Shown here piece by piece: positions 4,801 through 62,836 of a DNA stretch of 64,000 nt (within the stretch, counting starts at the first letter, position 1; the number at the start of each line of letters is the position of its first letter). The DNA comes from Cenococcum geophilum (lineage: Eukaryota). The position numbers were made by a program, and so were the translations under genes. Under the pieces are notes generated by a model, which made no database searches, was not told the DNA's origin, and saw nothing but the letters and a program-made list of their open reading frames with translations. The stretch covers positions 9,238,001 to 9,302,000 of the forward strand of contig CP158635.1 of NCBI GenBank assembly GCA_050273025.1. Direction: 5' to 3'.

Positions 4801-5470
4801 TACCTTAAACTAATTATTACTACTAAAGATATCTGTATAAACCCTAAGAAGGTATATATAGTTATTAAATAGTAAGCCCCTAACTATATTAAGGATATAT
4901 AAGCCTTCCTTAGTTTTGTTAACTTCTATTAGAAATTTATATACAACTTCTTAGGCGTAGTAGCACTACTTATAGTAATAATATAAATAAAGGGCCTTTT
5001 TATAAAAGAAAGAAAAACGCATCTATACTTTACCTAGACGCTTAAATATAAGAAGGCGTTCTAAGACCTTAAAAATACTTTTATTAAAGCACCTATCCTA
5101 GCTTACTTTATACTAGGATAATAACTCTACCTTAAAACTAACTTTTTAAACTATATTAACACAAGCGTCCTTTCTTAGATAGGTAATAACGGTTTCCTTT
5201 ACCTAGTTATATTCTACTCGTCTAAGCTTATACTATAAGAGTATAACTATAAGATCTATAATAAGGAACTTCTTATAATTATATAAGCGTTTAAGGAATT
5301 CTAACTAGAACTCTCCTTAGTAGAACCTAATTAGCTAACTAAAGTCCTTATAGATTATTATAACCTTAAGTACTTTATAACTATAAAGTAGCTAAACTAA
5401 CGCTAAGTATACTAGAATAAGTTTCTCTCTAGTTTTAACTTTAAAATCGTATATAAACTAGGAGTATAAG

Positions 5471-5680
5471 TATAACGGCGCTACCGCACGTTATCTGCCA
5501 AATTCTACCATATTCTGCCGACCTGTGATTGGCCCGCCTAAAGCTAGCGCCTTAGCAGCTCACCCTATATATTTATTTATATCGGTTCTAGCAACCTATT
5601 TTCCTTCTCTTTAGCTTAGTATCTTCGTAATACAGCATTCTATAAGCTTTGGTTTAGAAGTATTTATACAAGTCGTGATA
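5471..5680 (+). repeat. 5' LTR of Gypsy B1
   Basis: Direct repeat of 16671-16880, 49017-49227 and 54978-55188. Termini are RIPed TGTAAC...GTGACA. Confidence 0.95.
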
Positions 5681-6969
5681 TTATACTAAGCTCACTCTAC
5701 CCTACCTAAGAAGGCCTCAATAATATCCCACCCTAAAAGAAACTTCGTCTATAATAACGCATCGACGCACTATACTTAAACACCAAAAAACAACTATATA
5801 CTGCCTAGGAAGGCCTAAATAATATCCCACCTTTTAAGCTAGATAGGACTAGACCTATACCCCCAGAATTAAAACTAAAGCGTATAATACTAATAAACCT
5901 AAGGAAGCTAATAATAGCACCTAAAGCTAGCTTATTTAAGAGAGCTGCCTTTACCTAAGAGGAACCTAAGATCTAATTAGGATTAGAAATTAAAGACAAT
6001 AATAACATTATAGACGTATACGAGTAGATCTGCGCCCTTATAGCTAACTAGGAAGCCAATTATCTAAAGGCAAGGAATATATAAGAGACCTTATAAAAGA
6101 TTTTAGAAAGCCTCGCGGCCCTATAAAATAGCCTAGCTTCCCCTTTTTAAAGCCCTAATTAACTTATTTACTCTACTAAATGCGATATACTAGGGAGTAT
6201 AGATATAATAACGAAGTAATTAAAGTCTATTAAGCTCCCTAATCCCCCACTACTATCTAATAGGATAGACCCTCCCTTTAAGAATTAGAGGATTTAAGTA
6301 TAAGGAAAGCTCTGCGTTAACTATAACTATTTCCTTTCTAAAGAAGTTAAAATACTCTACCTCTTTAGCCGAACCACTGGGGACGCCTAGTGGCACCTTT
6401 AAGCTAAGTTCGAGGACGATTCTCCTATTTAATTTATATCTATTAATAAGATAATATAGCACTTAGCGGCTATTTATATTAACCCGAATAAAGTACAGGA
6501 TGCCCGTTATAACTATAATCGCCTAATAATAAAACTAAACTAACCCTTTGCTAAATTTTAGACTTAATTCCTACACCTTATAGGAGAAGGCTAGGTTCCC
6601 TTTAAGAACTACTAATTAGACCTATACAATAAGCTAATAATCCAGCTATAAGTAAAGATTACTGTAACCTTAAATAACCTACTAACCTATAAAAGACTCG
6701 CAGCTTATTGCCTATTATTAGACTTAGAACTAAAGTAGATTAACGCCTACCCTAATTGGCAGAAGCAACTCTATAATAATTAAAACTTACTAGCTATACC
6801 TATAGGAGCTAAAGTAGGAAGATAAGTTACGACTACTCTTATACTAAAGGCGGTTATAACTACGCACTAGTAAGCCTTATCTAACTAGTTACGTACTACG
6901 CCATTAACTAGTATTTACTGTAATACTCCGGTTAACCCTACCTCGGCTATATACTATAACTGTAATATA

Positions 6970-9900
6970 ATAATAATTCATTGCTTAACGTCCGATTTGG
7001 ATCCCTATTAAACCCACGCGGACTACTCCTATATACATGTGGGGAGAAAACTCTATTTAAGAAAACCCCGTAATCTATCTCCCTGCCTTTTAGGACTCGC
7101 CTATAAGGCGCCTGCAAGGCGCCTGCGAGTCACCTATAGTGCTCCTACTATCTTACTTTTTAACCTCCTTAGGAACCACTGCTGCCGTAATAAGCCTACG
7201 GACGCGCTAGTATTGCAAACTTTACTCTACTACTATAGAGTCAATAGGGGGCACCCATTGCTCGCCCCCCTGCCTTTTATTGCTATTTCCTTTACAACCC
7301 AGAACTGGTTTAGTACATTTTAGCTAATAAGCCACTAGGTAACTGCCTTAAGGCCTTTTTATATTAAGAGCAGTGTCTTATAGTTCTCTATACCAGCTAC
7401 TAAGAGTATTACTTCTTAGTTAGTACGTAAGGGGCATAGCAGTATTACGTGCTTTAGTGTCTGTCTTGGCTAGCTATATTTATATCTTAGGCTACCTACT
7501 AAAACACCTACCTAGTAGAGCCAGTCTTTTAGTCCTATTACTCCTGTTCTTAAGAGTGTTGCCATTATATTTTCTGCCTTTATTAGGCCTTCTTAGAGCC
7601 CTAGAGTGTTTACCCCCCATAGCGTTAACTATACTACGGCTTAGGTTCTTCTTGCCTTAGTTAACCTCTATACCTTTAACTCCTATACGCCTCTTTAGTG
7701 TTAGTTTAGCCAGTATTATATTATAGTAGTTGGTTTCCCAGCGTTCTTTTATGCTTTACTTTAGCTCTTTTCTCTCTCTTACTGTTGTCCTTGCTGGCCT
7801 CTTACGCGTCTCCCTTCCTCCTTTATATAGGCCTGGGCCCTAAAGCAGCACTATTCTTCTTCTACTTTCTTTACTTATTTCTCTAATATATCTTCCCTGC
7901 TTTGGGGTTGTTGGTTTATTCTCTTATAAGGCGCCCTAGGGTCCCTCTATAGTTTATTTAGGCGTGTCTTAATATACTTTATAACATTAAAGTTGCGTTC
8001 CTTTTACGCCCTTTATATTGCAGCGGCTTTAATATATAGTTATAGGGGGGGAATATTAGCTTCCTTCTTAAGTAGTACTGTGGCCGTTTGCTTATATCCA
8101 CCTATTATACTCTAAAGGCAAGCTGTTTGGACCTTTTAGAGTGGTTTAAGGAGTAATTTAGGGGGGCCTTTTTTAGATTCTCTAATGGCCCAAATACTGG
8201 ACCTATACGTTATAGTTGGCCGGACAACTGCTATATATAGTAGGCGTGACCTTTAGAAGCATAGACCCTATATAGAATTAACGATTCTAAATAATATGAT
8301 ATACTATACTTAGCCCTTACGGGCCGCTTAAGCCGCATATGCGCTCTACCGGAGCTTATTATCTACCTATACTCCTAATACTCTTAGGCCCTAAACTAGC
8401 TAACCCCTAAAGCCTTAAATGCGAATTATATACTAAAGATCTGTAGATTGGTTACGTTTTCTTATAAAATAGATTAGCTAGTACTTCTCTGGTAAGAATT
8501 GGACTTTATATCGTCTTACCTATTCTATATAGGTGTTATAAGCTTTCTCTAGCGTTCTATAATTCTCTGCGGCTATTAGCCCGTATATAATTAGGTTTAT
8601 ATTATTAACGAAGCCTATCCCCTAGGTCGCCCCTTTCTTAAAGAAGTTAAGTAGGTTGCTTATAAAGAAAAGGAAGAGTATAGGCGAGAGGGGTAATCTT
8701 TATAGTATTCCTGTTGCAACTACGATTAGGGGGCTTTAGTATCCGCTAAAAACTAGCAATATTTCTTTTTAGCCTATAAACCCTTAAATAAATTATATAA
8801 TCTATTCTAGGAAGCCTTTTGCTCTAAGAATGTATAGGAGACGCTTATAGGGTATGTTGTTATAGGCGCCACTAATATCTAGGCTAAGCATTAATACTAT
8901 AAAGTCCCTTCGCATCGCCTATGCTGATTTAATGGTGGCAGCGAGTAACGTAAGTGCTGATAGTGTTAAGCGGTTCTTTCTTGCCCCTATTTAGCTTTAT
9001 AGTAGTAGGGCGTATTCCTCTACCATATCTGCTATATAGTCCGCTATTACCCTTTCTAAGATCTTACTAAGGGTATTCTCTAAGGCAATAGGGCGGTAGC
9101 TCCCTAGAAATAAGTAGTCTGCTTTACCTTCTTTATATAGGATAAACGTTGTTATAGCTCTTCCAAGTCTTAGGTAGTAGCCTATTATAAAGTATACTCT
9201 AGCTATATCCGCAAGCTAAGGTACTATTAGTAGTCCGCAGGTTTTTAGGGCTTTATTTAAGATCCCATCTAGTCCTAATACTATATTATTTAAAAGGCGG
9301 CTAATGGTTCTGGCCATTTCTTCGGTTGTTATATTACTGTTAACCCTTAGGTAAGTTACCGGTGCTTCGCCTGTAATATCACTAAGGTCTGCTAAAACTA
9401 GTTAAGGGAAGAATCTTTCTATAAGGATTTTTGCCTTCTTATTATTGTTGCTTATAGCTAGTAATTTACCTAGTCTTTGTAGGGGCGGAAGGTGTGGGTC
9501 TTCTACTAGATGTCCTGCCTTTCTCTTTACCTATTTCGCTATCCTCTAAAGACCTTTATTATAGGGGAGGCTTAGGTTAGTAATATACTTATTTATAAAC
9601 TATCTTTAGCTATTCCTTACTTCTTTTTTTAGGGTATTCTTTAGCTGGTTTCTTATATCTTTGTAATATCTCTCGTCTTTAGGATTATAGCTACTTATGT
9701 ATTTTCTTCTTACTTGTCGTTGGCTGGCGATAAGAACCGCGCATTATGTGGACTATACGTGTCGCGCGTAGGGGCCCGCTTTTAAGATTGGGTAGTGCTC
9801 TTCTAACCTATTTTTAATTGCTGCCTAGATCCTTTCTAGTCTTTAGTTGATTTCCTTAGGGGTAGCTACTAAGCCTCGCTTATTTAGTATCGGGTAAATT

Positions 9901-12194
9901 TCTTCTAGGTCTTAGAGTTATTGTTTAACTATATTAAGAAAGCTGTCTATCTTAAGCTTTCTTATTACGTATCTTTTGCTATTTAATTATGCCTTAATAT
10001 CTAGATCTAGCTGTATTTAGATAGGGATATAGTCTAAAGCAAGTGCCTATTCTTCTTCGGGGTTACACCTTTTAAGTCTCTGGTATAGGCCTTCGTCTAT
10101 AAATATAAGGTTAATTATGCTTCTAGCAGTGCCTCGTTGCTATATAATTGCTTCTAGGGGGGTGGCTAGCTTAAGGCCCTAGGTGTTTATAGCTTTTAGT
10201 AGGCACTTTACCTATTATTTAGCAGCAATATAGATACCCCCCCATTATAGGTGGTGGAGGTTTATATCTCTTAATAGGATAGACTCTGTGCCTTTGGTTT
10301 CTAGTAAGCTTATTACTAATATAATATTCTCTATTTATGGGACCCCTTCGACCCTAGGGTTATATATATTAATAATTTGTACCGGTCCCCTATATGTTTG
10401 GATTGTTATAACTATAATATCTAGGTTAACTGCCTGCTATAACTATAAGGATAGGCTAATTACCTTACTAATTATAAAGTACACGCGTATAGCTGCTTTT
10501 GGTTTATATAGGAGCTGAAATCCTCGGGGGCAGTATATTAATTATATATAGGCATTATAATACGGCTCTTATATAGTAAGGATATAGTATTTCTCTAGGT
10601 CTAAGCTGTCTAGCAAGGGCCTTGCAAGACAGTAGTTTGTATTACCGCAGTTATACTGTATAATGGATAGGTGGTGGACCCTTAGTGGGGGTCCTTTGCC
10701 TCTCCTTTATTCCTCACTTCCTCTGTTTTCACTTTCTCTAGGATATTTAGAGCTTCTATCTCTTGTGTCTATATTCTAGTTACTACTTATTTTATATGGA
10801 GCTTTCTATTCCCATATCTTGTGTTCCTAATAGCGCTTTTATATCTAAATTTATTATTATCTCCAGTTCCTCCCCTATTCTTGCTAGTTGGCTATATGCC
10901 CTTTAAGAGTCGGCTGTAAATATTATATTTGCCGCGTTAAGTCTAATTCTTAATTGTCCTGGTCTTAAGCTTACTATAGCTGTCTATAATAGTCTTCCTA
11001 CAGGGCGTCCTCTCCCTTATGTCCCCTGTGACCCTTATATCCCCTATAATCCTTATGTCCCTATACGGTCTAGTAATATCGCGCGGCGTCGCTTCTAGCC
11101 CGTTAAGGCTTGGGATGGCTGGCCTAGCCCCCCGGTATTAAAGGTAGGAAATGCTGAAAAGGCACCTGCGCCCCCCTAGCTTATCGCCTGTTGTTTCCAT
11201 TTATATAACCTAGCGTGTAGTTGTTCCCGTAGCTGTTAAGCCCTTACCTTCCGTCTCCTGTATTTAATGCAGTCTCCTCTCTCCTACGCCTTATATGTGC
11301 TTTGGTGGCAGTTTACGCATTTTATTTAGTCTTAATTTAAGCAGTTTCTTATATTGTAGGGGCCTGCATAGTGGCCGTAGCACACCTGTGCTGCGTATAT
11401 AGATTAGGTGTATCCCTATTATACGCAGCAGTAGTATTATTTTAGGCGGAGTTTATAGTTATAGAGCCTTGCGTCGTATATAAGGCCATTTATAATAATA
11501 CCTTTTTGGATGAGGAGTTTTTGCATTCCTGGTGTATGTGTGCTGATAATAAGGGAGCTATGCGTTTAACCGGCGTCTTCCTGGCGAGTCTCTGGCGACC
11601 CTTATATTCTTTTATTATTCTTGTTATATGCTTAGTTTGCATTTTCCTGTCGAAGCTATTAGATTTGGGTAATCTCAAGTCCTAGTATAAGGCGTTCCGT
11701 TTGTTTTACTATCTTTTATATAGTTGCTGTATTATCCGCCTAGCGTCCCTTTTTTACCCTAAGGCTTAGGGGAACCACTAGGACTTTAACTGGGTAATCT
11801 TTATAGAGCACTTTTATGCCAATACGTTCTCCTAGCCTGTTCCCTACCCTTATAACTTATTCCTTTGCCTGTTGGTCCCTTAGGGTGACTCTAATGTCTC
11901 CGCTCCTAAGGTGTCGGACTATAATGGCGTCGTGGACCTCTTTACGAATTTTTATAAGGACTTCTGTTTCTAATTGTCCCCTAAGCCCCTCTGCTTTCTC
12001 TATATTTAGTTATATTGTAATTATATATCCGGATATTGTCTTTAGGGGGGTAGGCTCCCTATGCTGTAGAGGCGCAGCTATGGCGGCCTAGGTGCGGTTC
12101 GCCGGTAAGGAGGGGTTTTGTTTATTTTCGATTTTGCTTAGCCGTTGGAGGATTTAGTTGAGGGTTTGCTAAAGGGGCGCCTGAGGTTCGCTGG
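6970..12194 (-). mobile_element. Tad1-like LINE (ORF1 with CCHC knuckles; ORF2 with APE endonuclease, RT and C-terminal zinc finger), probably 5'-truncated within ORF1
   Basis: 14-bp TSD ATAACTGTAATATA at 6956-6969 and 12195-12208, splitting the B1 gag zinc knuckle that is contiguous in B2. Short (TAT)n tail at the left end. Knuckles ~11270-11440 (KCVNCHQS.HKAW..GDC). RT G(IPQGS)PLSPILF ~8672-8711 and GFV(DD) ~8600-8615. C-terminal RQT(P)KHVILLC ~7434-7490. Confidence 0.92.
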
Positions 12195-15100
12195 ATAACT
12201 GTAATATATAGGGTTACTTTATTTTATTCTGCCCGGAGCCAAAGGATATAAGCAATATTAAGGAGATAAAGGAAGGAGAAACGTCTGATAAGTTAGGAAA
12301 AAAAGAACCCTAGGGAAAGACTCCCCCCTAGGGTACCCTATTAATCTTAAAGAGATTAATTTTAGTTAGTTAATGGGTGGAAAGCATTTTATAGTTCTAT
12401 ATATAGTATCTTAAAATAGATATAAAGTTAATATAACTGCCCTTATTAACACTAGAGCAAATAGCTTTACCTTTATAAATACTACCTATATAAGTAATAT
12501 TGCTAAGTTTTTAAATATAGAAGCCATCTAACTAGAGAAGCCTATCTAGATAAAAGGCTATAATAGCTAAGCCGGTTAGCCCGTTACCCACGTCTTAAAG
12601 TTATGTATTGCTCTTAATAGACGACGCTAATACGGTATCCCCTTTTATATCTTAGACCTAGGGTCCTATAATATAATCCTTAGACAAAAATAGATGCTCT
12701 GTTTTAATATTTGGTTAAATATATAATAAAGACAGTTTGTCTAGCTAGAGGATAGACGAAAGTTACCCTCTTTTATTAGGGAGATCTAAACTAATTATAA
12801 GACACTAGCTATAAGGGCTAACCCTACTTACTAATAGAATGTCTGGGCCTGTGACCTATCCTTTACCTAAAAAGATGCTTATTATAAAGCTAGAAAGAAC
12901 TCTATACTAATAAAGATACTTTTCTAAAGCGCTATATTTAAAGAGGACTCTACGTATAAAAGCGGGATAGATAATAATATAGACAATGTCTAAATTGTAT
13001 AGATATAACTGGTATAAAAAAGAACGTATTAATAGAATATAAGGGATAACCTCTAAAAGATGCAATAAGAGCTAAAAGGAGTAATGATAACGCTAGTACC
13101 CTAGAAGTCTCTAAAGTTATATACGCCCCTATTATTAGGTAACCCCCCTACTATAGATATTGCCGTAATTAGTGCTATAGCGTTTTACTTTAATATGTAC
13201 TAGAAGGATAATAAGGTCTTTATAATAAGCCTATATAAGATTAACCAAATTATTAATAATAGAGAGGAAAGACTAGCTAAGGAAACTAATAAGGAACTAG
13301 TTAAACGCCTTCTTTTTATTATTTATATAGATTATAAGGATATATTCTTAAAGGGGGCCTTAAATAAGTTACCCCCTTACTAGACATATAATTATAAGAT
13401 ATAATTAAAAGATAATAACTCGTTAGGCTATAGCCCCCTTTATTATTAATTAATGGATAAGCTAAAAGTAATAAAGTAGTACTTGATTAATAACCTAGAT
13501 AAAGGGTTAATTAAGCTAAGTTAAGCCCCTTTTACTTCCCCTATTCTATTTATAAAAAAGCTTAATAAAGACCTTTATTTTTATATTGACTATTAAAAGC
13601 TAAATACTATTACTTAAAGGGACCGGTATTCTATTTCTTTAATTAACGAGACCCTTATACGTCTAAGCTAGGTAAAGATCTTTACTAAACTTAATATCCG
13701 CTAAGCTTTTTACCGAATTAGGATAGACCCTATATCTAAAGATTTAACAACGTTCCGTACCTATTATAGTTCCTATAAATATAAAGTTCTTTTTTTAGAC
13801 TAATAAACGGACTGGCTATGTACTAAAGGTATATAAATAACGTTCTTTTTAATTACCTTAATAAATTTTATACGGTATACCTAGACAATATTCTTATATA
13901 CTTAGATAATAAACTTAAGTATTAAGTTTATATTAAAAAGGTTTTAGAGAGATTACAAAACGCGGGCTTATAAGTTAATATTAAGAAATATAAGTTTAGG
14001 GTAAAACGTATAAAATACCTTAGGTTTATTATAACTATAGAAGAAATTAAGGTTAACCTTAAGAAGGTAGGGGCAATTTATAACTAGAAGCCCCCTTATA
14101 TAGTAAAAGGAATCTAATCCTTCCTTAGCTTTTATAACTTTTACTGCTAGTTTATTTATAACTACAAAATTATAGTAAAACCTCTTATATAACTAACTAG
14201 GAAGGACACGCCTTTTATCTTTAATAATAGCTATATAGAAGCCTTTAAAGAGATAAAGGATTAGCTTATCTCTTCCCTAATCCCTTATTACTATAACCTA
14301 GACCTTAAATTAATACTAAAAATAGATGCCTCTAATAGGGTTATAGCAGGAATTCTATTACAGTTATATTTAGACGGCAAATAGTACCCTATAGCTTGCT
14401 TTTTAAAGATAATAAACCCGGCTAAGTATAACTATAAAGTATATAATAAAGAAATACTAGCTATTATTTAATTACTCTCCTAATAGCGCGTAGAGCTTAA
14501 AGATATAAACTTCTAAATTAAGATATATATAGATTATAAAGCCCTAGAGTATTTTATAACTATAAAGCAGCTTACTAGATAATAAGCCTAGTAGGCTAAA
14601 ATACTCTCCTAATTCTTTTTTATAATTATATATTATTCTAGTAAGTAAAACTTTAAGGCTAATGCCCTAACCTAAAGAGAATAAGATATAGGACCCTAAA
14701 ATAAGCTAAAGACCTAATATTAGACGCGCGCCCTCCTTTATTTAAAACAGTATAACCTACGGATCCTTAAGGAGCTAGACTCCTAGTAAAATAAGCTAGC
14801 ACTAATAGAGGAGCTTTTAGATAAGCTAATAGGGCTAATTAACTACCTCCTAACTATAAACCGCACGGCTAACGCCTTAAGGGCCCTTCGCGAATAAGCC
14901 GTAATAGGAGACCCCGATTTTAAGATAGAGGAAGGATTGCTTCTATACTAGGAGCGGCTTATAGTCCCTAATATTAATATTTATAAACTAAACTAATCTA
15001 CGAAGCTTATTGCTAAGTCTTTATAGTATACCCTAGTAAGAATAAAACCCGTAAAATTATTAACTGCCGCTATTATTAGCTAAGAATAGTTACGGATATT

Positions 15101-16670
15101 AATTAATATATATGAAACTGCGAAGACTACTAGAGAGCTATAATCCCATAGGGTAAGACCCTAGGACTACTTAAGCTACTTCTAATACTAAAGCGCCCTT
15201 AGCAGTATATCTTTATAGACTTTTATAAACTACCTAGGGACTATAACGGATACGATATGGTTATAGTTATAGTTAACTACTTTAGTAAACGCCTGTTTTT
15301 AATTCCCTATTATAAGAATATCGATATTAAAGAGGTAGCCTAGCTATATGTTTATTACGTCTACCAAATCTATAGACTACTAAATACTACTATATCTAAT
15401 TATAGGCTATAGTTTATAATAGCCTTCTAAAATAAGTTTACCTAGATCCTAGGTATTAAGTTAAAGCTTTTTATAGCTTATTACCCCTAGACAGACGGTT
15501 AGACGGAGATTATAAATTAGTACCTAGACTAAAGGCTTAGGCCCTTTATTAACTATTTCTAGGATAACTAGTTAGAACTATTATCTTTAATAGATTACGC
15601 GCAAGCAACCTTACCCTACAACTCTACTAGGTTTGCCCCGATTTAGCTAGAAATAGAATACTTACCCTATATAAGCTTTAACTAGAAAAGGCTAGAAGAA
15701 CCCTAGACTATATAAGAGAAGCTATTTTATACTAAGGCCTAACAGTACAAAATAATTGGAGGAAGCCTAAATAGTAGCCCACAAGAACCTAGAAAAAGCT
15801 TAAAAGTTAATAAAACAGCAGGCGAATAAACACCGTTAAGAGCCTAACTTTGCCCCTAGTAATATAGTCTAGGTTATAATAAGAAATTAGAAGACCGAAC
15901 AACCTAGCTATAAGCTAGATTACTAGATAGTAGGACCATATAAGGTTCTTAAGAAGGTAGGTAACTTATATAAGATAAAGCTCCTAGATTTAATTAGGGT
16001 TTACCCTATCTTCTTAATAGATAAGTTATAGAAAGCTATAAACAACCTATTACCTAGATAAAAGAATGAGCCTCCCCTACTAGTTTAAGTAAACGGTAAC
16101 AATAAATAGGAGGTTAATAAAATACTAGCCTATAAGATAGTATAGGGAGCGCTAAAATACCGTATTTAATAGAAAGGCTACAATCCTAACCTAACCTAGT
16201 ACCCTATGTAGAACTTTATAGGCTGCCCCTAAAAGCTTAAAGAGTTTTATAACTAATACCCTAATATACCTAGACCCCTAAAGTACCTAGATAAATAGAT
16301 AGAATATTAGTAGGATAGAGATAATAAGTTACTGGAAGAATATAGGGACAAAAACGCCCTAAAGCCCTAATATAGCTGTTTGCCGTTTTCTAACGTTTCC
16401 TGCTAGTACCGTAAAATTTTAGATATCTAGAAACTTTAACCGCCGGTTAAAGTTATCTAATTAGTTAGATCTGTGCTAAGACTTTTAGCGGCTACTTTTT
16501 CTAGCCTAGTGCTTCCGCTTAGCCTATAGTCGCCCTTTATACTTAGTCTGGACGTACTTATATCCCCTTTTATCTTCTTATCTTATTTTATAATTCTACG
16601 TTTATAAGCCTAGTACTACCCTATTTCTAACTAAGCCTAAAAGTAGGCTTTCTTTTAAAGAAGGGGGTAA

Positions 16671-16880
16671 TGTAACGGCGCTACCGCACGTTACCTGCCA
16701 AATTCTGCTATATTCTGCCGACCTATAATTGGCCCGCCCAAAGCTAGCGCCTTAGCGGCTTACCTTATATATTTGTTTATATCGGTCCTAGCGACCCCTT
16801 TTTCTTCTCTTTAGCTTAGTATCTTCGTAATACAGCATTCTACAAGCTTTGGTTTAGAAGTATTTATATAAGCTATAATA
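16671..16880 (+). repeat. 3' LTR of Gypsy B1
   Basis: Begins TGTAACGGCG after the PPT and is followed by TSD ATAAG. Confidence 0.95.
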
Positions 16881-18963
16881 ATAAGGTACTAAGCCTAATA
16901 GCCTAATACGCCGCTTATAAGACGTCCCTTAGTTAAAAAAGACCTTTATAATTAGTTCTAATAATAGATAATCCTAAAAGTTTAAAATTTAGCCCTAGGT
17001 ATACTACCTATAATAAAACTAACTAAACCTTAGCTTTATACTATAGAACTAAAGTTACCTCCTAAAATTAATAAGCTTATTACTACGGCATATAACACCT
17101 CTATTAACCTATTATTATATTAACTTATTACTATAAAGACCGCTAACACCTATATACTACCTATTAACATCTAAAGCTTAGGCTAGATTAATATAGCAGC
17201 CTTAAAAGTAAAAGAGAATAGGCTCTACTATAAAGGCCGCTTATTTATCCCTAACTTAGAAAATCTATAACGGTAACTAATCTAAATAGCCTATAACCTC
17301 TAATTAAGCGGCTACCTAGGTAGAGGAGGAACCTATAAGCTTCTTAGCTAATACTACTTTTAGCTAAAAATAATAGACTTAGTTAAACACTTTATAGGCA
17401 CCTATTACGGTTATAAGCGCGCTAAGGCCTTTAATATAAAGTACTAAGGACTACTATACCCTTTACTAGTACCTATATAACAATAGACAGATATCGCTAT
17501 AGATTTTATTATTAACTTACTACCCTATAAATAATACGGCTGTACCTATATGAATATCCTTATAATAATATACCAACTTATAAAAGAGCGCCACTACGTC
17601 CTAACTAAAGGCATAGCCATTAGCAATATTACTAACGCCTTCCTTTATAAAGTTTACTAACTACATAGGTTACCTAACTTAATTATATCCAACTAAGGTA
17701 TATAATTTAACTCTAATATATAGAGACAAATCTACTAACGCCTTAGTATCTCTCTTAAAATATCTGTATCCTTTTACTATAATACTACTAAATAACTAGA
17801 AAACGCTAATACTAGTATAAAAGCGTACCTATAATAGGTAGTCGCCTATAATTAAGATAACTGGGTAAGTTACCTCCTATTAGGTAAATTCGCAGCAAAT
17901 AACTACGTCTTAACTACTGTAGGACTTACCCCGTTCTTCGCGAATAATAGTTATTACCCCTAATCTAGTATAGAGCCACTAGAACCTATTAATAAAAAAC
18001 TACTATATAGAAAACGCCTTAGGATACTACTTATTAACCAGTATACAAACTATATAAAAAATCTACTTAACTACTATAAGGGAGAAATGGCCTAGGCTTA
18101 AGTAAAGTAGGCCTACTTTGCTAACCGTTATAGAATACCACTACTAAAGATATGTATTAGCGACTAGGTATAGCTAGATATATATAATATCTCTATATAG
18201 AGGCCTATAAAGTCACTTAATTATAAGAACCTTAGCCTCTATTTAATTAAATAAGTTATTAATAAGGGAGCTATATATAAGCTAAAACTCTTACCTACCC
18301 TAGCTACCTGTAGAATATAGCCTATATTTTACCTATAGCTACTATACCTTTATTAGCCTAACCCCTTACTAGGGTAGATATAGCCTAAACCCCTACTAGT
18401 ACTAATCTAAGATAAGAATAAAGATGAGAACTATAAGGAGTAGACTATTAAACAAATTATTAACTTTAAATATTTTAGTAAAGGTAAAGTACAACGGCTC
18501 TACTATAGAGCTATATATATAGGATTTAATATAAATTAGCCAGAATGGCAACTATAGGAAGACTTTAAAAATGCAAAGAATCTAATTAATGACTTTTACT
18601 ACGCAAACCTATAAAAACTAGGCCTAAGCAGAGATTTTATACCTAATCCTCTATAAAAGCCCTTATAGAGTTAAACCGTTATATATTACTATATAAGGGC
18701 AAATTGCTATTAGATTGCATTAGATTACGGTAAAGTATAATTATATAACCGGAATATTGTTAAGATATCTAGGAACTTTAACCAGCGGTTAAAGTTATCT
18801 AATTAGTTAGATTCTTAGATGCCAAGCCTTATTATATAATATTATTTTAAGCCTTTAGCAATACCCCCCTTTTTTCTTTATTTCTATACCTTAAGTATCC
18901 CTTTTATATATATATAGTATTCACAGCGTCGCCAGAACTCCGCCTTTATAGAAGGGGGAGTAG

Positions 18964-19156
18964 TATTACGGAACCCTACTATAAGGGCCTCTATAGGAGA
19001 GCCCCGTGCTCTTATATATACCTTATATATAGCTTATATTAGCTACGCGTAGGTATATTACCTCCTTACGCCCTTAACCCTTACGATTAATTGCGTAATG
19101 TCTTATAGTCTCCTTAAATACATACGCTCTATAGCCACTGCCTACGTTTTATAACA
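18964..19156 (+). repeat. 3' LTR of Gypsy A (~193 bp)
   Basis: Starts TATTACGG (RIPed TGTTACGG) just after the PPT and ends ATAACA. The Gypsy E chromodomain resumes immediately afterwards. Confidence 0.75.
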
Positions 19157-19372
19157 ATAGTAGTTTCTAAATAGTCTTATTATAGCCTATCGATTTAACT
19201 TTATACTATATTTATTCTTATTATTCTTATAACTAATAATCTTTAAAACTTACTATTTATCTTCTTTCTATCTTTTATATATATCTACTTTATAAAATAG
19301 TAGCTTAATATTTTTATATACTAGCTCTAGTATCGCAATATGCTATATAGGGTAGATCTTTATTTTAGCTAG

Positions 19373-19599
19373 TATTAGCGACTTAGTTAATCAAGATATA
19401 AGCACGGCAAAAGGGTCGCGCAAGCCTATACGATTGGATTGTCTATAAACGAGAATCTAAAGCTAAAAAAAGGAAAGGAGAAAAAAGGGAGCGCCGCTCG
19501 AAGCTATATACGATCTTCGCGTCACGTGACCACAATATACGGCAATCTGTGGCAACTTGCCGGTGTGTAGTTCTGCCAAGTTCTACTAGTGCCGTAACA
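19373..19599 (-). repeat. 3' LTR of Gypsy C
   Basis: Direct repeat of 25127-25353, adjacent to the PPT. Confidence 0.93.
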
Positions 19600-22500
19600 T
19601 TACCCCCCCCCTCTAAAAAAGCCTGCCCTTAGGCTTTACCGCTAAAAGTTTTAGTAAGAGAATCTGACTAATTAGACAACTTCAACCGCCAATTAAAGTT
19701 CCTGGATATCTTAGCACCTCACGTAACTAAGAAATTTCTGGGGCGTTTTTGTCCTTATGTTCTTCTGGTAGCTTATTATCTTTATTATACTAGCATTCTA
19801 TCCACTTATCTAGGTACTTTAGTAGTCTGGGTTTATTAGGGTAACGGCTGTGAAACTCCTAAAGCTTATAGGGGCTACCTATAAAGTTCTATATAGGGTA
19901 CCAAGTGGGGTCCAAGTTATATTTTTTCCAACTAATATGATACTTTAACGTTCCCTTTATAAGTTTATAGGCCAATATTTCTTTAATTTCCCATTTATTA
20001 TTATTGTTAACTTAAATTAGCAGGGGAGGTTCATTCTTTTGTCCGGGTAGTAGGTTATTTATAGCTTTCCGTAGCTTATCCGGTAAGAAGATAGGGTGGA
20101 CTTTAATTAAGTCTGGGAGCTTAACCTTATATAAGTTACCTACTTTATTAAAAATCTTATACGGTCCTGCTATTTTATAGTTTAGCTTATGGCTAGGCCG
20201 TTCTGTCTTCTAGTTCTTTGTTATAACCTAGACTATATCGCCTATAGTAAAGTTAGGCTCGCGCCTATACTTATTTGCCTACTGTTTTATTAATTTCTAG
20301 GCCTTTTTTAGGTTTATACGGGCTACTTTCTAGGCTTCTTTTAAGCGCTTAGCGTACTGCTAGGCTTCCTTATAAGATAGTTTTTCGCGTATAGTCTGGG
20401 GCCCTTCTAGTCTTTCCTAGTTAAAGCTTATACGGGGTAGGTAACCCATTTCTAGTTAAATAGGGGCAAATCCAGTAGAGTCGTGGGGTAGGGTTGCTTG
20501 GGCGTAGTTTATTAAGGGTAATAGTTCGGCCTAGTTATCCTAGAAGTAGTTAATAAAAGGCTAGAGTCTTTGGTCTAAGTATTAATTTATAATTTCCGTT
20601 TAACCGTCTGTCTAGGGGTAATATACTATAGAAAGCTTTAGCTTAATGCCTAGGATCTAGGTAAACTTATTCTAAAAGGCTAATATAAACTGCGGCCTGT
20701 GGTCGGATATAATAGTATTTAGTGGTCCGTAAATTTAATAGATATAGTGGATATACAGTCGGGCTGCCTCTTTAGCATTAATATTTTTGTGATAGGGAAT
20801 TAAGAACGGGCGCTTACTAAAGCGGTTAACTAGGATTATAACTATATTATATCCGTTATGGTCTAGAGGTAGCTTATAAAAGTCTATGGAGATATATTAC
20901 TAAGGGCGGTTGGGTATTAGGAGGGGTTTTAATAGTTTTAGGGTCTTATCTTATGGAATTGTAGACCTATAGCAGTTGTTGCAGTTCCGTATATAGCGGT
21001 TAATATCCATAACTATTCTGGGCCAGTAGTAGCGGTTGCTAATAATCCTATAGGTTTTATTCTTTCTAGGGTAGGCCGTAGAGACCTAGGTATGTGCTTT
21101 AGCAATAAGCTAAGTCCGTAAGTTCTGTTCCTTTACCACTACTAGCCGTTCCTAATACTTAAGTAATTTATTTTCGAGGGACTATAGGCTGGTAACGTTC
21201 TTTGCCTTTTTACGGTACTCCTGTAGAGAAGGGGCCGTACGGTTTGTTTGTAGCAATTTATCAATTAAGTTAAGTCCTAAAGGGTTAATAGGATATATCT
21301 CGGCGCCTAAGAAGTCTGTACTTAGTTCTGCCTATATTTAGGGGTTAAGGTGCTCTAGTTATAGTAGCGTCTAGGTCTATAATAAGATCTTCGCAGCCGT
21401 ATAGTCACTTAGGTCTTATTCGCGCCTAGTAAGAGTATTCGTACGGTTTATAGCGCCTGGTCTATATATAATTAAGAAGTTAAACTAAAATAGGATATCC
21501 GCCTAGCGTGCCTGCTAGGCCGTAAGGGCCTTAGTTATTATGAAGTATTCTAGGGCCTTATAATTTAATACTACTTTAATAGGTTTAGGGGTCCCCTCTA
21601 GCTGTACACGCCAGTGCTGAAAGCTAGAGATAATAGCTAGCATTTCTTTATTATAGATGTGGTAGTTTAGTTTAGTATCTATTATAGTCTTTAAATAGTA
21701 TACGACAGGGTGCTATTTTCCGTTTAGTTGCTTCTGGGAAAAAATACCGGCTATCGCGCTGTCTAAGGTATTAGTTTCTAGCGTTAAGGGCCGTTCTGGG
21801 TTAAAGTAGGTAAGTAGGGGGGCCGATACTAGCCGTTTTTTAAGCTTATTAAAGGCCTGCATACATATAGCGTTAAAGTAAAAGGGCTGGTCTTTCTTAG
21901 TAAGGCGGTTAAGAGGCCAGGTAATCCTGCTGTAGTTCTTAATAAAGCGTTAGTAGAAGTTATAGAAACCTAAAAATAATTATACCCCTTTTACGGTCTG
22001 TGGGGGCGTCTACTAGTTAATTACGGTTGTTTTCTCTGGGTCGGCCTTAATTCTATCTATGCTAATAATAAAACCTAGGTACTTTGTACACTTAACACTA
22101 AATTTTAACTTCTTAATATTAGCCTAGAGGCCAGCTTTGTGGAGCCGTTATAGGACTTTATAGATATGCTCCTCGTATTCCAGTTCGTTCTCTAAGTAGA
22201 TTATAATATTATCTAAATAGGCCGTATAGAAGTTGTTAAGGTAGTTAAAGAGTATATTATTTATATACCGCTAGTACGTAGCTAGTCCGTTAGTTAGTCT
22301 AAAAGGAAGTACCTTATATTTATACGTCCTATAACGGGTCTGGAATATAGTAAGATCCTTAGACCTGGGGTCTATCCTAATTTAGTAAAAGGCCTAGCGG
22401 ATATCAAGCTTTATAAAAACCTTAGCTCTATTTATTTAGGTAAGAGTCTTATTAAGTAAGGGCAGCGGGTAGCGGTTCTTATAGGTTATATTATTTAGCT

Positions 22501-25126
22501 TACGGTAGTTAATACAGAAGCGCAGTCCTCTATTTGGCTTTTTAATAAAGAGAATAGGTAAGTTAAAAGGGGCTTGGCTAGGCTTAATGAAGCCCTTATT
22601 TAGGTTGTTAATAAGGTACTATTTTATAGCTTATAATTTAGTAATAGATTATAGGTAGAGAGGGCTAAAGCTAAGGGTGCTTCCCTTATCTTGCTTAATC
22701 TTAATCTTATAGTTATATAGTTAGTGGGGTGGAAGTATATTAGACGCTGCCTTAGAGAATATGTCCTTGAATTTCCGGTGTTAATTAGGCAGTTTTTGCT
22801 CTACTAGTTCTTTATCTATAAGCCCACTTTCCTATCCGCTAAGCTCGCTTTTCTTTTCCTTAATTATTCGGTTAATTTTGTATAGGCTAGTTGTAAAGGT
22901 AACGGTATTAGGCTGAACTAGGTTCTGGTAAAATCCTATAGCGCTAATGTAGTAGACATTAACTGGTGGGAGGTCCGTAGGTTTCTTTAGCGTCTATTAG
23001 GCCGTAATTTGCGGTATAGGGTTTATGGTCTTCCTTAGCTTACGTTCTATTTTCCGTAAGTTATTCTTTCTATCTATTAGTTTAGTATAGCGTCCAATAT
23101 CCCTAGCTTTCCTTTATAGCTTTATAGGGTTCTCCGTAGGGAACTTAGCTAGATCACTACCGACTCTCTAGGTCTCTAGTACGGGTGGCGTAATATAGGT
23201 AGTTTGAGGGTGGTGTAGTATACGGATCTGTTATGGGTTAAGCTATACGTCCTTCTTAAAGGCCTGGTCTCTGCGTATAGTATTAGCCTAGTAAATAGTA
23301 TTAATCTAGGGCCGTATAAGGTTTTCTATTATAATGCTAATTTCTTTTATAAAGGAAGGGGTTAGGGGTAGAGTTTCGGGCCAGATAAGCTGTTTACTCT
23401 ATATTTTAAGCTATAAGCCTAAATAGGCTAGCTATTTTCTTCTTAAGATTATATTATGGCTTCCTAAGTCCGTAATGAGAAAGGGGACGTTATATTGCCT
23501 TCGTCCGTTAACGCGGAGGTAGATCCGTAAGATAGTTATAATAGGTGGCCCTATTTATCCGTTATAACCGTAAATAGGGATTGGTTTAGGTAGTTCTTTA
23601 AGGGGTATATTTAAAAAGTTAGCTAGTTTTGCAGCGCACTTTATGTTAATTAAGGTAAAGGCATTTATTTCTAAGTCAGCTAACGTAGAGGTTAAAACTT
23701 GATATCTATTGCGAAATAAAGTATAAGGGATAGTGTAGCTTCTTTTACTAACTAGCTGACCTAGATTAATATGTGATATATCGATCCCTTTTAACCCTAG
23801 AGAGGAGTTTTCCTCTAAGGTTTCTCTTTTTCTGGCTCTATACTATTCTCCTAAATTAATAGGACCTTGTTTATCTTTACCTTTATTAGGTAGTTCCTTA
23901 TAGGGTGGCCTATTTAACTATATAAAAAGCAAGCTCCTTAATCGCTAAGGGCCTGTATATAGGGGTCGCTATATATAGGCCGGGTGTATACCGGGCCTAT
24001 AGTAAGGGTAGCTGCGCGGCTAGCTGCTGGGTTAGCTATAGGAGTTGCTGATTATGCCAGGGCACTATAGGCCGTACTTGTAGTACTTATAGCCTAGTTT
24101 ATAAGGTTTCTAGTTTTTAGCTAGTTAGCGCGTGCCTTAATTTAACGGAGGCCTTAGTTAATAGCTAGGTAATGGTCTATAAGTTCCTTTAACGTCTATG
24201 CCGTAGTATAAGCTGTTAATACGGCCCGCTGTAGGTCTAGGGTAAGCTTGTTGAAGAGGTCTGGCAGTAGGTCTTCTTAGAGGATCTAGGCCGGTTTAGC
24301 TAGGTGTAGAAAGCGGGTTTAGAAGGCCGAAAAGGTCTCCATTGTTTTTATATTTAGGCTTTTATAGCTAAGGCGGGCGTTTTATACTTTAAAAGGGTTT
24401 TTATAAATAGAAGATAAGTGTTTAATTATTTCTTCTTTAGAGATGAAGGGGTCTGCTAAGTCTTTAGTGTATTGCGGGCGTAAATGCGTTTAGGCGTCTC
24501 CGCTAGTACGGCTGAAGATATAGGCCATTTTGGCTTAGGCGTTAGGGAAGTGGTCTATATTAACTTTAAGCTTGTCCTATAATTAAAGCTTCCAATTATT
24601 AAATATAGGGTCGGTTCCGTCTATAAGTAGTAGGGGGTCCGTGACCTTTGCTGACCGCTTTAGTGCGGTATAGGCCTTAGTAGATTTACTAAGGCGCTAG
24701 GATAGGGCCTAAAGGACTGTAATAAGTCTTTAGTTGTCTAATAATGACTTATTATTAGATATAGGGGTATTTCTAGCTTTAAGTAGCTCTCGCAATTATT
24801 TAATTTTGGTATTGGCAGCCGCAAGCTCCGCCTAGGGGGTTAAAACGTTAATTGTTTCTTTGTCTAAAGTATTTAAGGGTCCTGTAGCTGCTTTACCTAC
24901 TGCTATAGTTTGTGGCATAGTAGTAGGGGTATTGGGTAATTCTAGGTAATTTCTTTAGGGGTTCTGGTCTGTGTGTGTCTTATAGGTCCTTTTCTTAGGG
25001 TTCTGTTCTTTTCTTTTGGGTCCTGTCTTTGTGGTCCTGGTGATGTCCTTAGGGTCCTATTCTGTGTTCTTGTAGATATATTTAAGTTCCTTTTTAGGAA
25101 GAAAGAGTAGAGTAAGCTTTAGATAA

Positions 25127-25353
25127 TGTTAGCGACTTAGTTAATTGAGATATAAGCACAGCAAAAGGGTCGCGTAAGCCTGTACGATTGGATTGTCTAT
25201 AAACGAGAATCTAAAGCTAAAGAAAGGAAAGGAGAAGAAGGGGAGCGCCGCTCGAAGCTATATACGATCTTTGCGTCACGTGACCGCAATATGCGGCAAT
25301 CTGTGGCAACTTGCCGGTGTGTGGTTCTGCCAAGTTCTGCTAGTGCCGTAACA
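25127..25353 (-). repeat. 5' LTR of Gypsy C
   Basis: TGTTAG...GTAACA termini, adjacent to the PBS at 25115-25124. Confidence 0.93.
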
Positions 25354-25436
25354 GCTAGTAGGTTTAACTTAAATATAATTAGTAAAATCTATTATATAAA
25401 TTTAAAAGGTCCTAGTCTAATATAGTATAACTTTTT

Positions 25437-49016: not shown

Positions 49017-49227
49017 TATAACGGCGCTATCGCATATTACCTGCCAAATTCTGCCATATTCTACCGACCTGCGATTAACCCGCCTAAAGCTAGCGCCTTG
49101 GCGGCTCACCCTATATATTTGTTTATATCGGTCCTAGCGACCCCTTTTCCTTCTCTTTAGCTTAGTATCTTTGTAATACAGCATTCGTTCAAGCTTCGGT
49201 TTAAAGGCATTTATTTAAGCCGTGACA
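49017..49227 (+). repeat. 5' LTR of Gypsy B2
   Basis: Direct repeat of 54978-55188, ending GTGACA. Confidence 0.95.
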
Positions 49228-52200
49228 TTATACTAAGCTCTCCCTACCTTACCTAGGAAGGCCTTAATAATATCCCACCCTAAAGAAACTTCGTCTGCAA
49301 CGACGCATTGACGCGCTATACTTAGACACTAAAACAACTCTACATTGCCTGGGAAGGCCTAGATAATATCCCACCTTATAAGCTAAACAGGACTGGACCT
49401 ATACCCCCAGAATTGAAACTAAAGCATATAATACTAACGAACCTTAGGAAGCTAATGATGGCACCTAAAGCAAGCTTATTTAAGAGAGCTGCTTCTACCT
49501 AAGAGGAACCTAAGATCCAATTAGGATCAGAAATTGAAGATAATAATAATATCGTAGACATACGCGAGTAGATTCGCGCCCTTATAGCTAGCTAGGAAGC
49601 CGATTATCTTAAAGCGAGAAATATATAAGAGACCCTATAAGAGATCCTAGAAAGCCTTACAGCCCTATAAAATAGCCTAACTTCCCCTTCTTAAAGCCCT
49701 AGCTGACCTATTCACTCTACTAAATACGATACACTAGGGAGTATGGATATAATGACGAAGTAATTAAAGTCCGTTAAGCTCCCTAACCCCCTACCACTAT
49801 CTAATAGAATAGACCCTACCTTTAAGAATTAGAGGATTTAAGTATAAGGAAAGCTCCGCGTTAACCACAACTATTTCCTTTCTAAAGAAGCCAAAATGCT
49901 CTACCTCTTTAGTCGAACCACTAGGGACGCCTAACGGCACCTTTAAGCCAAGTTTAAGGACGACTCCCCTGTCCGATTTATATCTATTAATAAGATAATA
50001 CGGCACCTAGCGGCTATCTACGTTAACCCAAATAAAGTACGGGATGCCTATTATAACTATAATCACCTAATAATAAAACCAAACCAACCCTTTACCGAAT
50101 TCCAGACTTAATTCCTATACCTTACAGGAGAAGGCCAGGTTCCCCTTAAGAACTACCAATTAGACCTATACAATAAGCTAACAATCCAGCTATAAGAAAA
50201 GATCGCTATAACCTTAGATAACCTACCAACCTATAAAAGACTTATAGCTCGTTGCCTATTATTAGACTTAGAACTAAAGCGGATTAACGCCCACCCTAAT
50301 CAGCAGAAGCAACTCCGTAACAATTAGAACTCGCCAGCTACACCTATAAGAGCTAAAGCAGGAAGACAAGTTACGACTACTCTTATACCAAAGGCGGTTA
50401 TAACTACGTACTAGCAAGCCTCGCCCAACTAGCTACGTACCACGCCATAATACTCCAATTAACCCTACCTCGGCCACGTGCTTCAACTGTAATAAGTAAG
50501 GTCACTTTATTTCATCCTGCCCAGAGCTAAAGGATATAGGCGATATTAAGGAGATAGAGGAAGGAGAAATATCCAATAAGTCAGGAAAAGAAGAACCCTA
50601 GGGAAAGACTCCCCCCTAGGGTACCCTATCGATCTCAAAGAGATTAATCTTAGTCAGTTAATAGGTGGAAAGCATTTTACGGTTCTATATATAGTATCTT
50701 AAAATAAATATAGAGTTAATATAACCGCCCTTATTAACACTAAAGTAAATAGCTTCGCCTTTATAAATACTGCCTATATAAATAATGTTACCAAGTTTCT
50801 AAATACAGAAGCTATCCAACTAGAGAAGCCTATCTAGGTAAAGGGCTATAACGGCCAAGCCGGTTAGCCCGTTACCCATATCTTAAAGTTATATATCGCT
50901 CTTAACGGACAACGCTAATACGGCATCCCCTTTTATATCCTAGACCTAGGGTCCCACAATATAATCCTCAGACAAAAATAGATGTCCTATTTTAATATTT
51001 GGTTAAACATATAAAAAAGACGGTTTATCTAGCTAGAGGATAGACTAAGGTTACCCTCCTTTATTAGGGAGATCTAAACCGACCACAAGACACTAGCCGT
51101 AAGGGGTAACCCTACCTACTAGCAGGATGTCCGGGCCTATGACCTAGCCTTTACCTAAGAGGACGCCCGCCGCGAAGCTAGAAAGAACTCCATATTAACA
51201 AAGATACTCTCCTAAAGCGCTACATTTAAAGAGGACTCTACATATAGAAGCGGGACAGATAATAATATAGATAATATCCAAATCGCACAGATCTAACCGT
51301 TATAGAAAAGAACGTATCAATAGGATATAAGGGATAACCTCCAAAAGATACAATAGGAGCTAAAAGGAGTAACAATGACGCCAGTACCCCAGAAGTCCCT
51401 AAAGTCACATACGCCCCTATTGTCAGTCAACCCCCCTACCGTAGATATCGCCGCAATTAGCGCTATAGCGTTCCACTTCAATATATACCGGAAGAACAAT
51501 AAGGTCTTTATAACAAGCCTATATAAGATTAACCGAATTATTAATAATAGAGAGGAAAGGCCAGATAAGGAAACCAACGAGGAACTAGTTAAACGCCCCC
51601 TTCCTACCATTTATATAGGCTACAAGGATACATTCTTAAAGGCGGCCTTAAATAAGTTACCCCCCTACCGGACGTACAATTACAAGATTTAATTAGAGGC
51701 CAATAACTTACTAGGCTATAGCCCCCTCTACCATTAATTAATAGATAAGCTAAAAGCAATAAAGCAGTACTTAATTAACAACCTAAATAAAGTGTTTATT
51801 AAGCCAAGTCAAGCCCCTTTTACTTCCCCTATTCTATTTATAAAAAAGCCTAATAAAGGCCTTCATTTTTATATCGACTATTAAAAGCTAAACGCTATTA
51901 CTTAAAAGAACCGGTATCCTATTCCTTTAATTAATAAAACCCTTGCATATCTAAGCTAGGTAAAGATCTTTACCAAACTTAATATCCGCCAAGCTTTCCA
52001 CCAAATTAGGATAGACCCTATATCTAAAGATTTAATAACGTTCCATACCCGCTATAGTTCCTATAAATACAAAGTTCTTCCTTTTAGACTAATAAACGGA
52101 CCGGCTACGTACCAAAGGTATATAAATAACGTTCTTTTTAATTACCTTAACGAATTCTACACGGTATACCTAGACGACATTCTTATATACTTAGACAACG

Positions 52201-54977: not shown

Positions 54978-55188
54978 TGTAACGGCGCTATCGCACATTA
55001 CCTGCCAAATTCTGCCATATTCTACCGACCTGCGATTGGCCCGCCTAAAGCTAGCGCCTTGGCGGCTCACCCTACATATTTATTTACATCGGTCCTGGCG
55101 ACCCCTTTTCCTTCTCTTTAGCTTAGTATCTTCGTAATACAGCATTCGTTCAAGCTTCGGTTCAGAGGCATTTGTTTAAGTTGTGACA
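54978..55188 (+). repeat. 3' LTR of Gypsy B2
   Basis: Canonical TGTAAC...GTGACA termini; the least RIPed LTR copy. Confidence 0.95.
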
Positions 55189-62238: not shown

Positions 62239-62309
62239 TATCACCTTAATTCGATTAATCGATCGAATTGTTTATCGTGTTCGCTGGCTAGTCGTTCAAA
62301 CGGTTGTCG

Positions 62310-62820: not shown

Positions 62821-62836
62821 ACTAGCTGTCATTCTG

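Follow-up and report, generated by a model that had tools for sequence, protein, structure and literature searches.

An apparently lineage-restricted palindromic motif in the 3' untranslated regions of three chromovirus families of Cenococcum geophilum

The locus and its elements

A 64,000-nt stretch of the genome of the fungus Cenococcum geophilum (GenBank assembly GCA_050273025.1, contig CP158635.1, positions 9,238,001 to 9,302,000 of the forward strand; hereafter the window) holds members of three families of chromoviral long terminal repeat (LTR) retrotransposons, here called A, B and C. Each family carries a 49-nt palindromic motif between the end of pol and the polypurine tract (PPT). 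The explanation we prefer, held with about as much confidence as doubt, sees in the motif the core of an accessory insert of recent origin, confined to this lineage, which occupies a permissive slot and has been moved about by recombination. On the best reading, its apparent conservation reflects recency together with decay by repeat-induced point mutation (RIP) only, and is not demonstrated selection. The elements, delimited by self-BLAST, and the motif copies are these (positions in the window):

5471..16894, plus strand: element B1, a B-family copy 86-87% identical to B2, inserted in element A
16895..19363, plus strand: 3' part of element A, between B1 and C, with integrase, chromodomain-like end, untranslated region (UTR), PPT (18950-18960) and LTR start
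19364..25353, minus strand: element C, with 236-nt LTRs 93% identical, inserted in the 3' LTR of A
49017..55190, plus strand: element B2, a full-length chimeric chromovirus
16422..16470, plus strand: motif copy of B1, heavily RIP-mutated, with the palindrome at 16432-16454 and the second hairpin and inverted CCAAT remnant at 16455-16470 (plus strand); 86.4 bits with the covariance model described below
18764..18812, plus strand: motif copy of A, palindrome at 18774-18796, C-similar span ~18759-18817; 82.3 bits
19662..19710, minus strand: motif copy of C, palindrome at 19678-19700; 74.1 bits
54724..54772, plus strand: motif copy of B2, palindrome at 54734-54756; 84.9 bits

The shared palindromic stretch measures 50-75 bases overall, and the 49-nt motif is its named core. 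All four copies stand where the initial annotation of this DNA first placed them, on the strands given there. A RIP-tolerant 39-nt pattern matches exactly these four sites in the window, against an expectation of 0.00 from 100 dinucleotide shuffles. Every copy follows the pol stop and precedes the PPT, in sense orientation throughout. The distance from pol stop to motif start is ~65 nt in B, ~17 nt in C and ~150 nt in A, and that from motif to PPT ~190, ~45 and ~140 nt, respectively. Since the spacing to both the stop codon and the PPT varies, a role of the motif in termination or plus-strand priming is unlikely.

Judged by their sequences, the host elements appear to be self-priming chromoviruses of the Tf1/sushi type. 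The gag-pol of C is a single frame of 1665 codons with 95 RIP stop codons. Its integrase region matches the Pfam families Integrase_H2C2, rve and SH3_Tf2-1, and 108 database proteins match its integrase-chromodomain part (the best 58-74% identical, most of them with chromodomain PF00385). Pfam does not directly detect a chromodomain on the RIP-mutated window copies. The B and C elements lack a tRNA-type primer-binding site; the 10 nt that follow the 5' LTR (ATCTAAAGCT in C, ATACTAAGCT in B) complement a 10-mer within the LTR (AGCTTTAGAT or AGCTTAGTAT), at these sites:

25115-25126 and 25209-25218, minus strand: putative self-priming complement sites of C
49228-39 and 49159-68: putative self-priming complement sites of B2

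Such a complement is named as a hallmark of Tf1/sushi self-priming elements in the sections cited here of PMC10085805. The H2C2, rve and Tf2-1-type SH3 domains, the chromodomains of relatives, the missing tRNA-type site and the LTR 10-mer are all shared with the Tf1/sushi group (Tf1, Tf2, Tosmo1-3). The 49-nt motif, in contrast, is not a feature of that group, most relatives having almost no 3' UTR. A tRNA-related interpretation (Ty3-like bipartite primer binding) was dropped, there being no tRNA genes in the window and the elements being of the self-priming type.

Element A stands apart. An X-masked translation of it matches no Pfam family at E 0.01, and its integrase is only 24-29% identical to B- and C-type proteins (tblastn; best 28% over 467 aa, E 1e-33), for which reason A is taken to be a distant chromovirus lineage. 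In the related metagenome locus L066, an A-type LTR continues unbroken over the point where C sits in the window.

Dinucleotide indices of the window copies are RIP-like (TpA/ApT 1.6-1.9; (CpA+TpG)/(ApC+GpT) 0.28-0.58, vs 0.90-0.99 in loci L006 and L003), and by the usual thresholds they indicate strong mutation of this kind.

Distribution of the motif

Related elements were collected with an alignment (A2) of 14 RNase H-integrase-chromodomain proteins, which fetched 80 metagenome loci encoding relatives 52-92% identical to P0003. A search of these loci with the RIP-tolerant pattern, allowing up to 8 substitutions, finds the motif in seven of them (L006, L025, L057, L066, L072, L075 and L080). 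Five of the seven copies belong to family B, two to family C and none to any other. The remaining 73 loci lack it, including six that end within 2 nt of the match, too early to be judged.

A covariance model built from the 11 copies (four from the window, seven from the loci) and run on the window and the 80 loci (538 kb) returns the known copies only, at 74-88 bits. Apart from reverse-strand palindrome echoes, the only other matches are two at or below 17 bits, the better of them scoring 16.9 bits. A prokaryote contig collection gives no match to a RIP-tolerant pattern of palindrome plus Y-box and none to the unmutated palindrome; a viral contig collection gives none with two stricter patterns. 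Two viral-contig matches to a RIP-tolerant flank pattern were rejected as chance, lying in AT-rich phage-like DNA without the hairpin. Scanning window positions 16000-20200 against Rfam 15 (cmscan, E up to 10) yields four weak matches, none overlapping a motif copy, and no description of the motif was found in the literature searched. The initial annotation, which knew of no description, is upheld on both counts. It would appear from these searches that the motif is lineage-restricted and not widely conserved.

The families are present in high copy number: tens of thousands of related contig pieces from three DNA runs map to 15600-20400. The variant places listed for run X1 over this interval comprise 863 transitions and 57 transversions.

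The motif before RIP

The state of the motif before RIP can be read in L006 and L080 as GATGTCCAGG-AACTTCGACC-GGC-GGTCGAAGTT-GTCTGATTGGTCAGAT. L006 is lightly mutated: its GC content is 51%, and its gag-pol has just 2 premature stops. Across the alignment of 11 copies, all differences within the 49 nt are transitions, except at the central loop base (G/C) and for one C>A change in L072. Intermediate states (GATGTC; CTAATTGG) are seen in L025, L075 and L072, with CTAATTGG being the intermediate of the ATTGG region in L072. The strings GATATC and CTAATTAG of the window copies are products of TpG>TpA mutation, because the least mutated copies read GATGTC and GTCTGATTGGTCAGAT. The de-RIP consensus first proposed (GATATC; GTCYAATYAG...) is consequently wrong at three positions, at which L006, L080 and the intermediate copies show the mutation to have run G>A and not C>T. 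The "GATATC" and "CTAATTAG" palindromes read into the window copies are RIP artefacts.

Three features of the unmutated sequence are real. One is a perfect 11+1+11 palindrome, AACTTCGACCG-S-CGGTCGAAGTT, with C or G as its central base (L006, L080, L025 and L072, RIP changes allowed). The others are a small possible second hairpin, TCTGA-TTGG-TCAGA, and an inverted CCAAT box (CTGATTGGTC) whose ATTGG is intact in L006 and L080. The inverted repeat described earlier with 10-bp arms is real, its arms being in fact 11 bp around one central base. Differences other than RIP had been placed only in the 3-nt loop. The central C/G transversion stands, but the loops AGC and GCT derive from GGC and GCC, respectively, by RIP-type change. 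The CCAAT box reported as adjacent is present, but on the opposite strand.

The stems themselves give no sign of compensatory change. Covariation over the 11 copies does not exceed that of shuffles (0.115 vs 0.111, a score that 252 of 500 shuffles match or exceed). Six of the ten palindrome-stem pairs and four of the five second-hairpin pairs are invariant, and the test is low in power because all stem variation is of the RIP type.

How the three families came to share the motif

Family B is, by nucleotide comparison, a two-parent chimera, with an L030-like front (~4.3 kb) joined to a C-like integrase-chromodomain end (~1.4 kb). L030 aligns with B2 positions 128-4324 at 74.5% identity (4234 nt), and the LTRs of B2 and L030 have blocks in common. 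Over B2 positions 4253-5650, which encode the integrase C-terminus and chromodomain, identity to the crown-clade loci L005, L013 and L014 is 75-78%, and L030 matches only in 149-191-nt patches at ~70%. The 3' breakpoint of B lies within the motif-bearing UTR. Because this end of B is C-like, B and C share the motif by descent.

The degree of conservation between B and C can be judged by counting only transversions and indels, since RIP does not produce them. Over the last 1500 nt of pol, B and C differ by 0.067 such changes per site, and 35% of 52-nt B-C pol windows contain no more than one. The segments shared between C and B in the UTR measure 8+52+23 nt, and one change in the 52-nt motif core is unremarkable, as 35% of pol windows are as conserved. 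The claim that motif identity between B and C is exceptional does not survive this comparison.

By the same count, C is much closer to relatives without the motif: in this 1500-nt end of pol it differs from L016, L019, L013 and L003 by 0.014-0.024 transversions and indels per site. A tree built on transversions only places C among motif-less relatives, with L080 on an unexplained long branch. This nucleotide tree was adopted because RIP displaced copies in the protein tree of the integrase region, which was set aside after RIP-mutated copies moved and L006 fell apart from the other two C copies.

Between A and C, 59 nt around the motif contain no transversion (~78 nt by eye, if one small gap is allowed), and the flanks beyond this patch cannot be aligned. 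Because the integrases are only 24-29% identical and just 59-78 nt are shared, the A-C patch is attributed to lateral transfer and not to common ancestry. A 170-nt contig of run X1 spans 18648-18806, from A's own UTR into the motif, so at least one other A-like copy has the same junction. The LTRs of the three families differ and the flanks in A are unrelated, just as first described. The likeness of A to C nevertheless runs slightly past the 49 nt, to 59 nt (~78 nt with the gap).

The initial annotation favoured a cis-element selected across three independent families, with a module swapped between families as its fallback. The former is not upheld: B is not independent, 73 of the 80 loci lack the motif (the six unjudgeable ones included), and covariation is absent. 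The fallback is supported by the B chimera and the A-C patch.

The slot before the PPT and a conserved hairpin

The distance from pol end to PPT is below 40 nt in most loci (typically 8-37, with a few below zero), vs 119 nt in C and ~301 nt in B. The extra sequence, which includes the motif, lies between the stop and a hairpin that precedes the PPT, and amounts to ~90 nt in C and to a ~300-nt patchwork in B. Unrelated inserts fill the same slot in four other lineages (L039, 96 nt; L047, 119 nt; L045, 126 nt; L068, 587 nt), which is the reason for regarding the interval from pol stop to PPT as permissive. The L068 insert (~4290-4850) starts with a 19-nt A-run and resembles a captured polyadenylated sequence. 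In L082, L047 and L039, pol ends in TAATTAG- or CTAACTAATTAG-like strings, with stops in three frames, just upstream of the pre-PPT hairpin.

The usual layout in most loci is a stop in or beside the hairpin AAGCCT-GAGGRC-AGGCTT, then a T-run, the PPT and an LTR starting TGATGTTACGG. The pol stop TGA is often formed by the closing T and the first two loop bases of the hairpin. The window copies are:

16633..16650, plus strand: pre-PPT hairpin of B1 (AAGCCT-loop-AGGCTT), followed by a T-run and the PPT (16657-16667)
54940..54957, plus strand: pre-PPT hairpin of B2, with the PPT at 54964-54974
19619..19636, minus strand: pre-PPT hairpin of C, with the PPT at 19603-19614

An alignment of 61 segments (A4, from loci L003-L080), chosen by loop and PPT and not by stems, shows double changes in all 7 of 7 pairs (54 cells, vs 9.9 in shuffles; 0 of 500 shuffles reach it). 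Its cells are paired in 88% of cases, vs 30-62% with the partner strand shifted along. It is therefore the 7-bp pre-PPT hairpin with its GAGGRC loop, not the motif, that forms the conserved structure here. With its T-run, the hairpin occupies the classical position of the retroviral U-box or T-run that flanks the PPT. The motif does not, lying 45-190 nt further upstream at variable spacing. For fission-yeast elements, the cited sections of PMC10085805 report a TCTT that is conserved upstream of the PPT, and neither a hairpin nor a palindrome; no description of the pre-PPT hairpin was found in the literature searched.

Origin and spread of the insert

Comparison with LTRs is suggestive of a U3 origin, with inverted duplication, for the insert. 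The C insert is colinear with the promoter-proximal U3 of an L003-type LTR (AGTCACGTGAG ... AACTTCGAGCGGCG), and 6 of 500 dinucleotide shuffles reach the best of 24 LTRs. An exact ACTTCGACCGGCG lies just after the TATA box in the LTRs of L015 and L027. In the 3' UTR of B, 26 nt of the element's own U3 occur again (CTGCCAAATTCTGCCATATTCTGCCG; z = 10, 0 of 300 shuffles), a comparison that also covers L057 and L025. Comparisons of the reverse-complemented UTR with LTRs are not significant.

54669-54693, compared with 49041-49066 and 55002-55027: U3 repeat in the UTR of B2 and its LTR counterparts

In B1, ~20 nt of this repeat are missing, by a deletion between TGCC repeats.

On the preferred account, a promoter-proximal U3 fragment (the CACGTG box plus ACTTCGAsCGGCG) would have been copied into the slot by non-homologous template switching, and a snap-back inverted duplication would then have made the 11+1+11 palindrome. 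B gained its integrase-chromodomain end, motif included, from a C-like parent by recombination, and further template switches may have carried the insert between co-resident families. The GC-centred, stable palindrome may itself promote such switches, as it could stall reverse transcriptase and pair in trans. Such mosaicism has precedent: the Tf1/Tf2 and Tosmo1-3 families are described, in the sections cited of PMC10085805, as mosaic and recombinant like the families here. That recombination accounts for origin and spread we regard as very probable. That the insert also has no sequence-specific function for the element is a claim to which we give slightly less than even weight.

Several observations pull the other way. 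The U3 likeness of the C insert is modest (p ~0.012 corrected for 24 LTRs), its likeness to C's own LTR is not significant (score 20, reached by 15 of 300 shuffles), and template switching and snap-back are steps that we infer. Internal nodes of the transversion-only tree are weak (34-59), and nodes of that strength are compatible with a single gain in the ancestor of B and C followed by losses. The A family is represented by one copy read directly. The seven external copies do not count as independent lineages, because all share one contig-name prefix, and they probably come from the same fungus or a close relative; the motif may also be distributed more widely than the window, the 80 loci and the viral and prokaryote contigs. 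Three high-copy families have retained the insert, possibly to some advantage, in the same orientation in all three. The unmutated motif has a textbook-looking, putative inverted CCAAT/Y-box, and as RNA the unmutated 49-mer folds at -19.7 kcal/mol (z -2.75, 2 of 200 shuffles).

Possible functions

The last of these observations is the starting point for a reading in which the motif is an RNA cis-element, its 10-11-bp palindromic hairpin and adjacent 5-bp hairpin serving packaging or dimerisation, with the perfect palindrome perhaps switching from hairpin to intermolecular duplex. With a palindrome in common, RNAs from different families could pair and become co-packaged, which would also account for the chimeras. 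The stable fold and the invariable sense orientation fit this reading, as does the way the palindrome runs into the loop (G-S-C), where it is useless in a hairpin and pairs in an extended duplex. Recombination between families, demonstrated in B and A, fits as well, and for Ty1 and HIV palindromes have been put forward as dimerisation sites (in the parts of PMC3592414 cited here). The opposite strand, however, folds about equally well (-17.1 kcal/mol, z -3.24), as any palindrome would be expected to do; the stems show no covariation, most relatives replicate without the motif, and its distance to stop codon and PPT varies. Like the HIV-1 dimerisation initiation site and Ty1 PAL1-3, the motif is a self-complementary sequence in genomic RNA able to pair between molecules, here tied to inter-family recombination. 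Those palindromes are 6 nt long, lie in the 5' leader or gag region and have probing data behind them, and known dimerisation and packaging signals sit in the 5' leader (both as given in the cited parts of PMC3592414). The motif shares their self-complementarity (11+1+11) and not their 5'-leader location, its palindrome being 23 nt long, in the 3' UTR and without covariation support. On balance an RNA element of this sort seems rather unlikely. No dimer-linkage site is known in the 3' UTR of an LTR element. A narrower version, in which the 23-nt palindrome is a trans-pairing handle for recombination, forming inter-family heterodimers through the extended duplex and so leading to co-packaging and exchange by template switching, is distinctly improbable. 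Retroviral export elements (the constitutive transport element, CTE, and RNA transport element, RTE, of simple retroviruses and intracisternal A particles) occupy the same position between the last reading frame and the PPT or 3' LTR. The motif has no Rfam match at E up to 10 and consists of two short perfect hairpins, not of a long internally looped stem.

If instead the DNA is what acts, the 23-bp palindrome could bind a dimeric factor and form, with the inverted CCAAT CTGATTGGTC, an enhancer- or promoter-like module that drives antisense transcription or, for instance on circular DNA, boosts the neighbouring LTR. Apart from a central pair that flips C/G the palindrome is perfect, which is the symmetry expected of a dimer site; ATTGG is present in the unmutated copies; CTGATTGG or CCAATCA also occurs in the LTRs of L049, L030 and L045; and both the U3-like insert of C and the 26-nt U3 repeat of B would suit a promoter-derived module. 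The motif's flanks hold a CACGTG box in C and GGCAGAA-type repeats in B, which are also present in U3 regions. The flanks of the CCAAT fit the Y-box form of NF-Y (HAP, AnCF) sites, a match that, like any other of the motif to a factor-binding consensus, is putative. The box is here found upstream of the PPT, inside the element and not in a mapped promoter, and CCAAT is not enriched in LTRs of the lineage (8 of 50 distinct LTR starts, first 150 nt, which is at or below the background of 0.28 per 150 nt). The 5' LTR receives no copy of what lies upstream of the PPT, and sequence there cannot therefore serve the main promoter in the usual way. RNA run X21 shows no transcript starts, in data too thin to weigh either way. 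Of its 133 reads, 121 align only in part and 92 fall below 90% identity; mean depth does not exceed 0.35 at the motif copies of B1 and A, few reads cover that of C, and neither read starts nor read ends form clusters. We consider a DNA module of this kind unlikely, though it and the trans-pairing RNA palindrome are the main rivals of the preferred account. Partly aligned X21 reads at 16977, 19142 and 19401 run on into relatives of the A and C LTR regions that are richer in GC and apparently unmutated, which suggests that some related A/C-type copies are transcribed in organism B of that run. Two further readings are very improbable. The remnant or excision footprint of a tiny DNA transposon (a miniature inverted-repeat or foldback element) that landed independently in the same slot of three families would explain a core that is a perfect inverted repeat, in a slot that accepts unrelated insertions elsewhere. 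It would leave unexplained the lack of a target-site duplication or flanking direct repeats, boundaries that differ by pair (59 nt for A-C, 8+52+23 nt for C-B), the identical orientation in three families, and the lack of any free-standing copy outside chromovirus 3' UTRs in the 538 kb. A degenerate C-terminal extension of pol is equally doubtful: the C-type insert is open from TAG to the ancestral TGA in the pre-PPT hairpin (32 codons in L006, SREVLRCPGTSTGGRSCLIGQILLPRLLAAKA), and B reads the motif in the same frame. A run of 32 open codons has, by our own estimate, a chance of about 1 in 5, and a coding role is unlikely because the TAG is constant in all three C copies (the lightly mutated L006, with 2 premature stops in gag-pol, included), B has two further stops upstream, and the pol frame of A meets the motif in a different frame.

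Other features of the window

6968-12196: foreign DNA (~5.2 kb) inside B1, delimited by self-BLAST, without an open frame of 110 aa or more and without similarity to other window elements
31711-35704 and 55577-59557; 25428-26331, 36000-38700 and 59558-60319: a further repeat family with 83% identical copies and LTR-like repeats, without the motif
61960-63858: satellite arrays at the GC-richer end of the window, with CTAC x44, the self-complementary 20-nt GTCGTCTAGCTCTAACGACG x25 and a 12-nt unit x63

Implications

If the motif is indeed a passenger, RIP can make a young shared insert mimic a deeply conserved palindromic signal. The same reading would put the modularity of fungal chromoviruses on view, B being a two-parent chimera and the slot before the PPT accepting foreign pieces. 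Should the palindrome act after all, through RNA pairing or a host factor, it would be an accessory cis-element spreading horizontally between retrotransposon families; as a handle for recombination, a small RNA element would drive the modular evolution of co-resident retrotransposons, with the chimeric B and the patch in A as examples. The pre-PPT hairpin, found in ~60 related elements and often containing the pol stop, may prove a more durable result than the motif.

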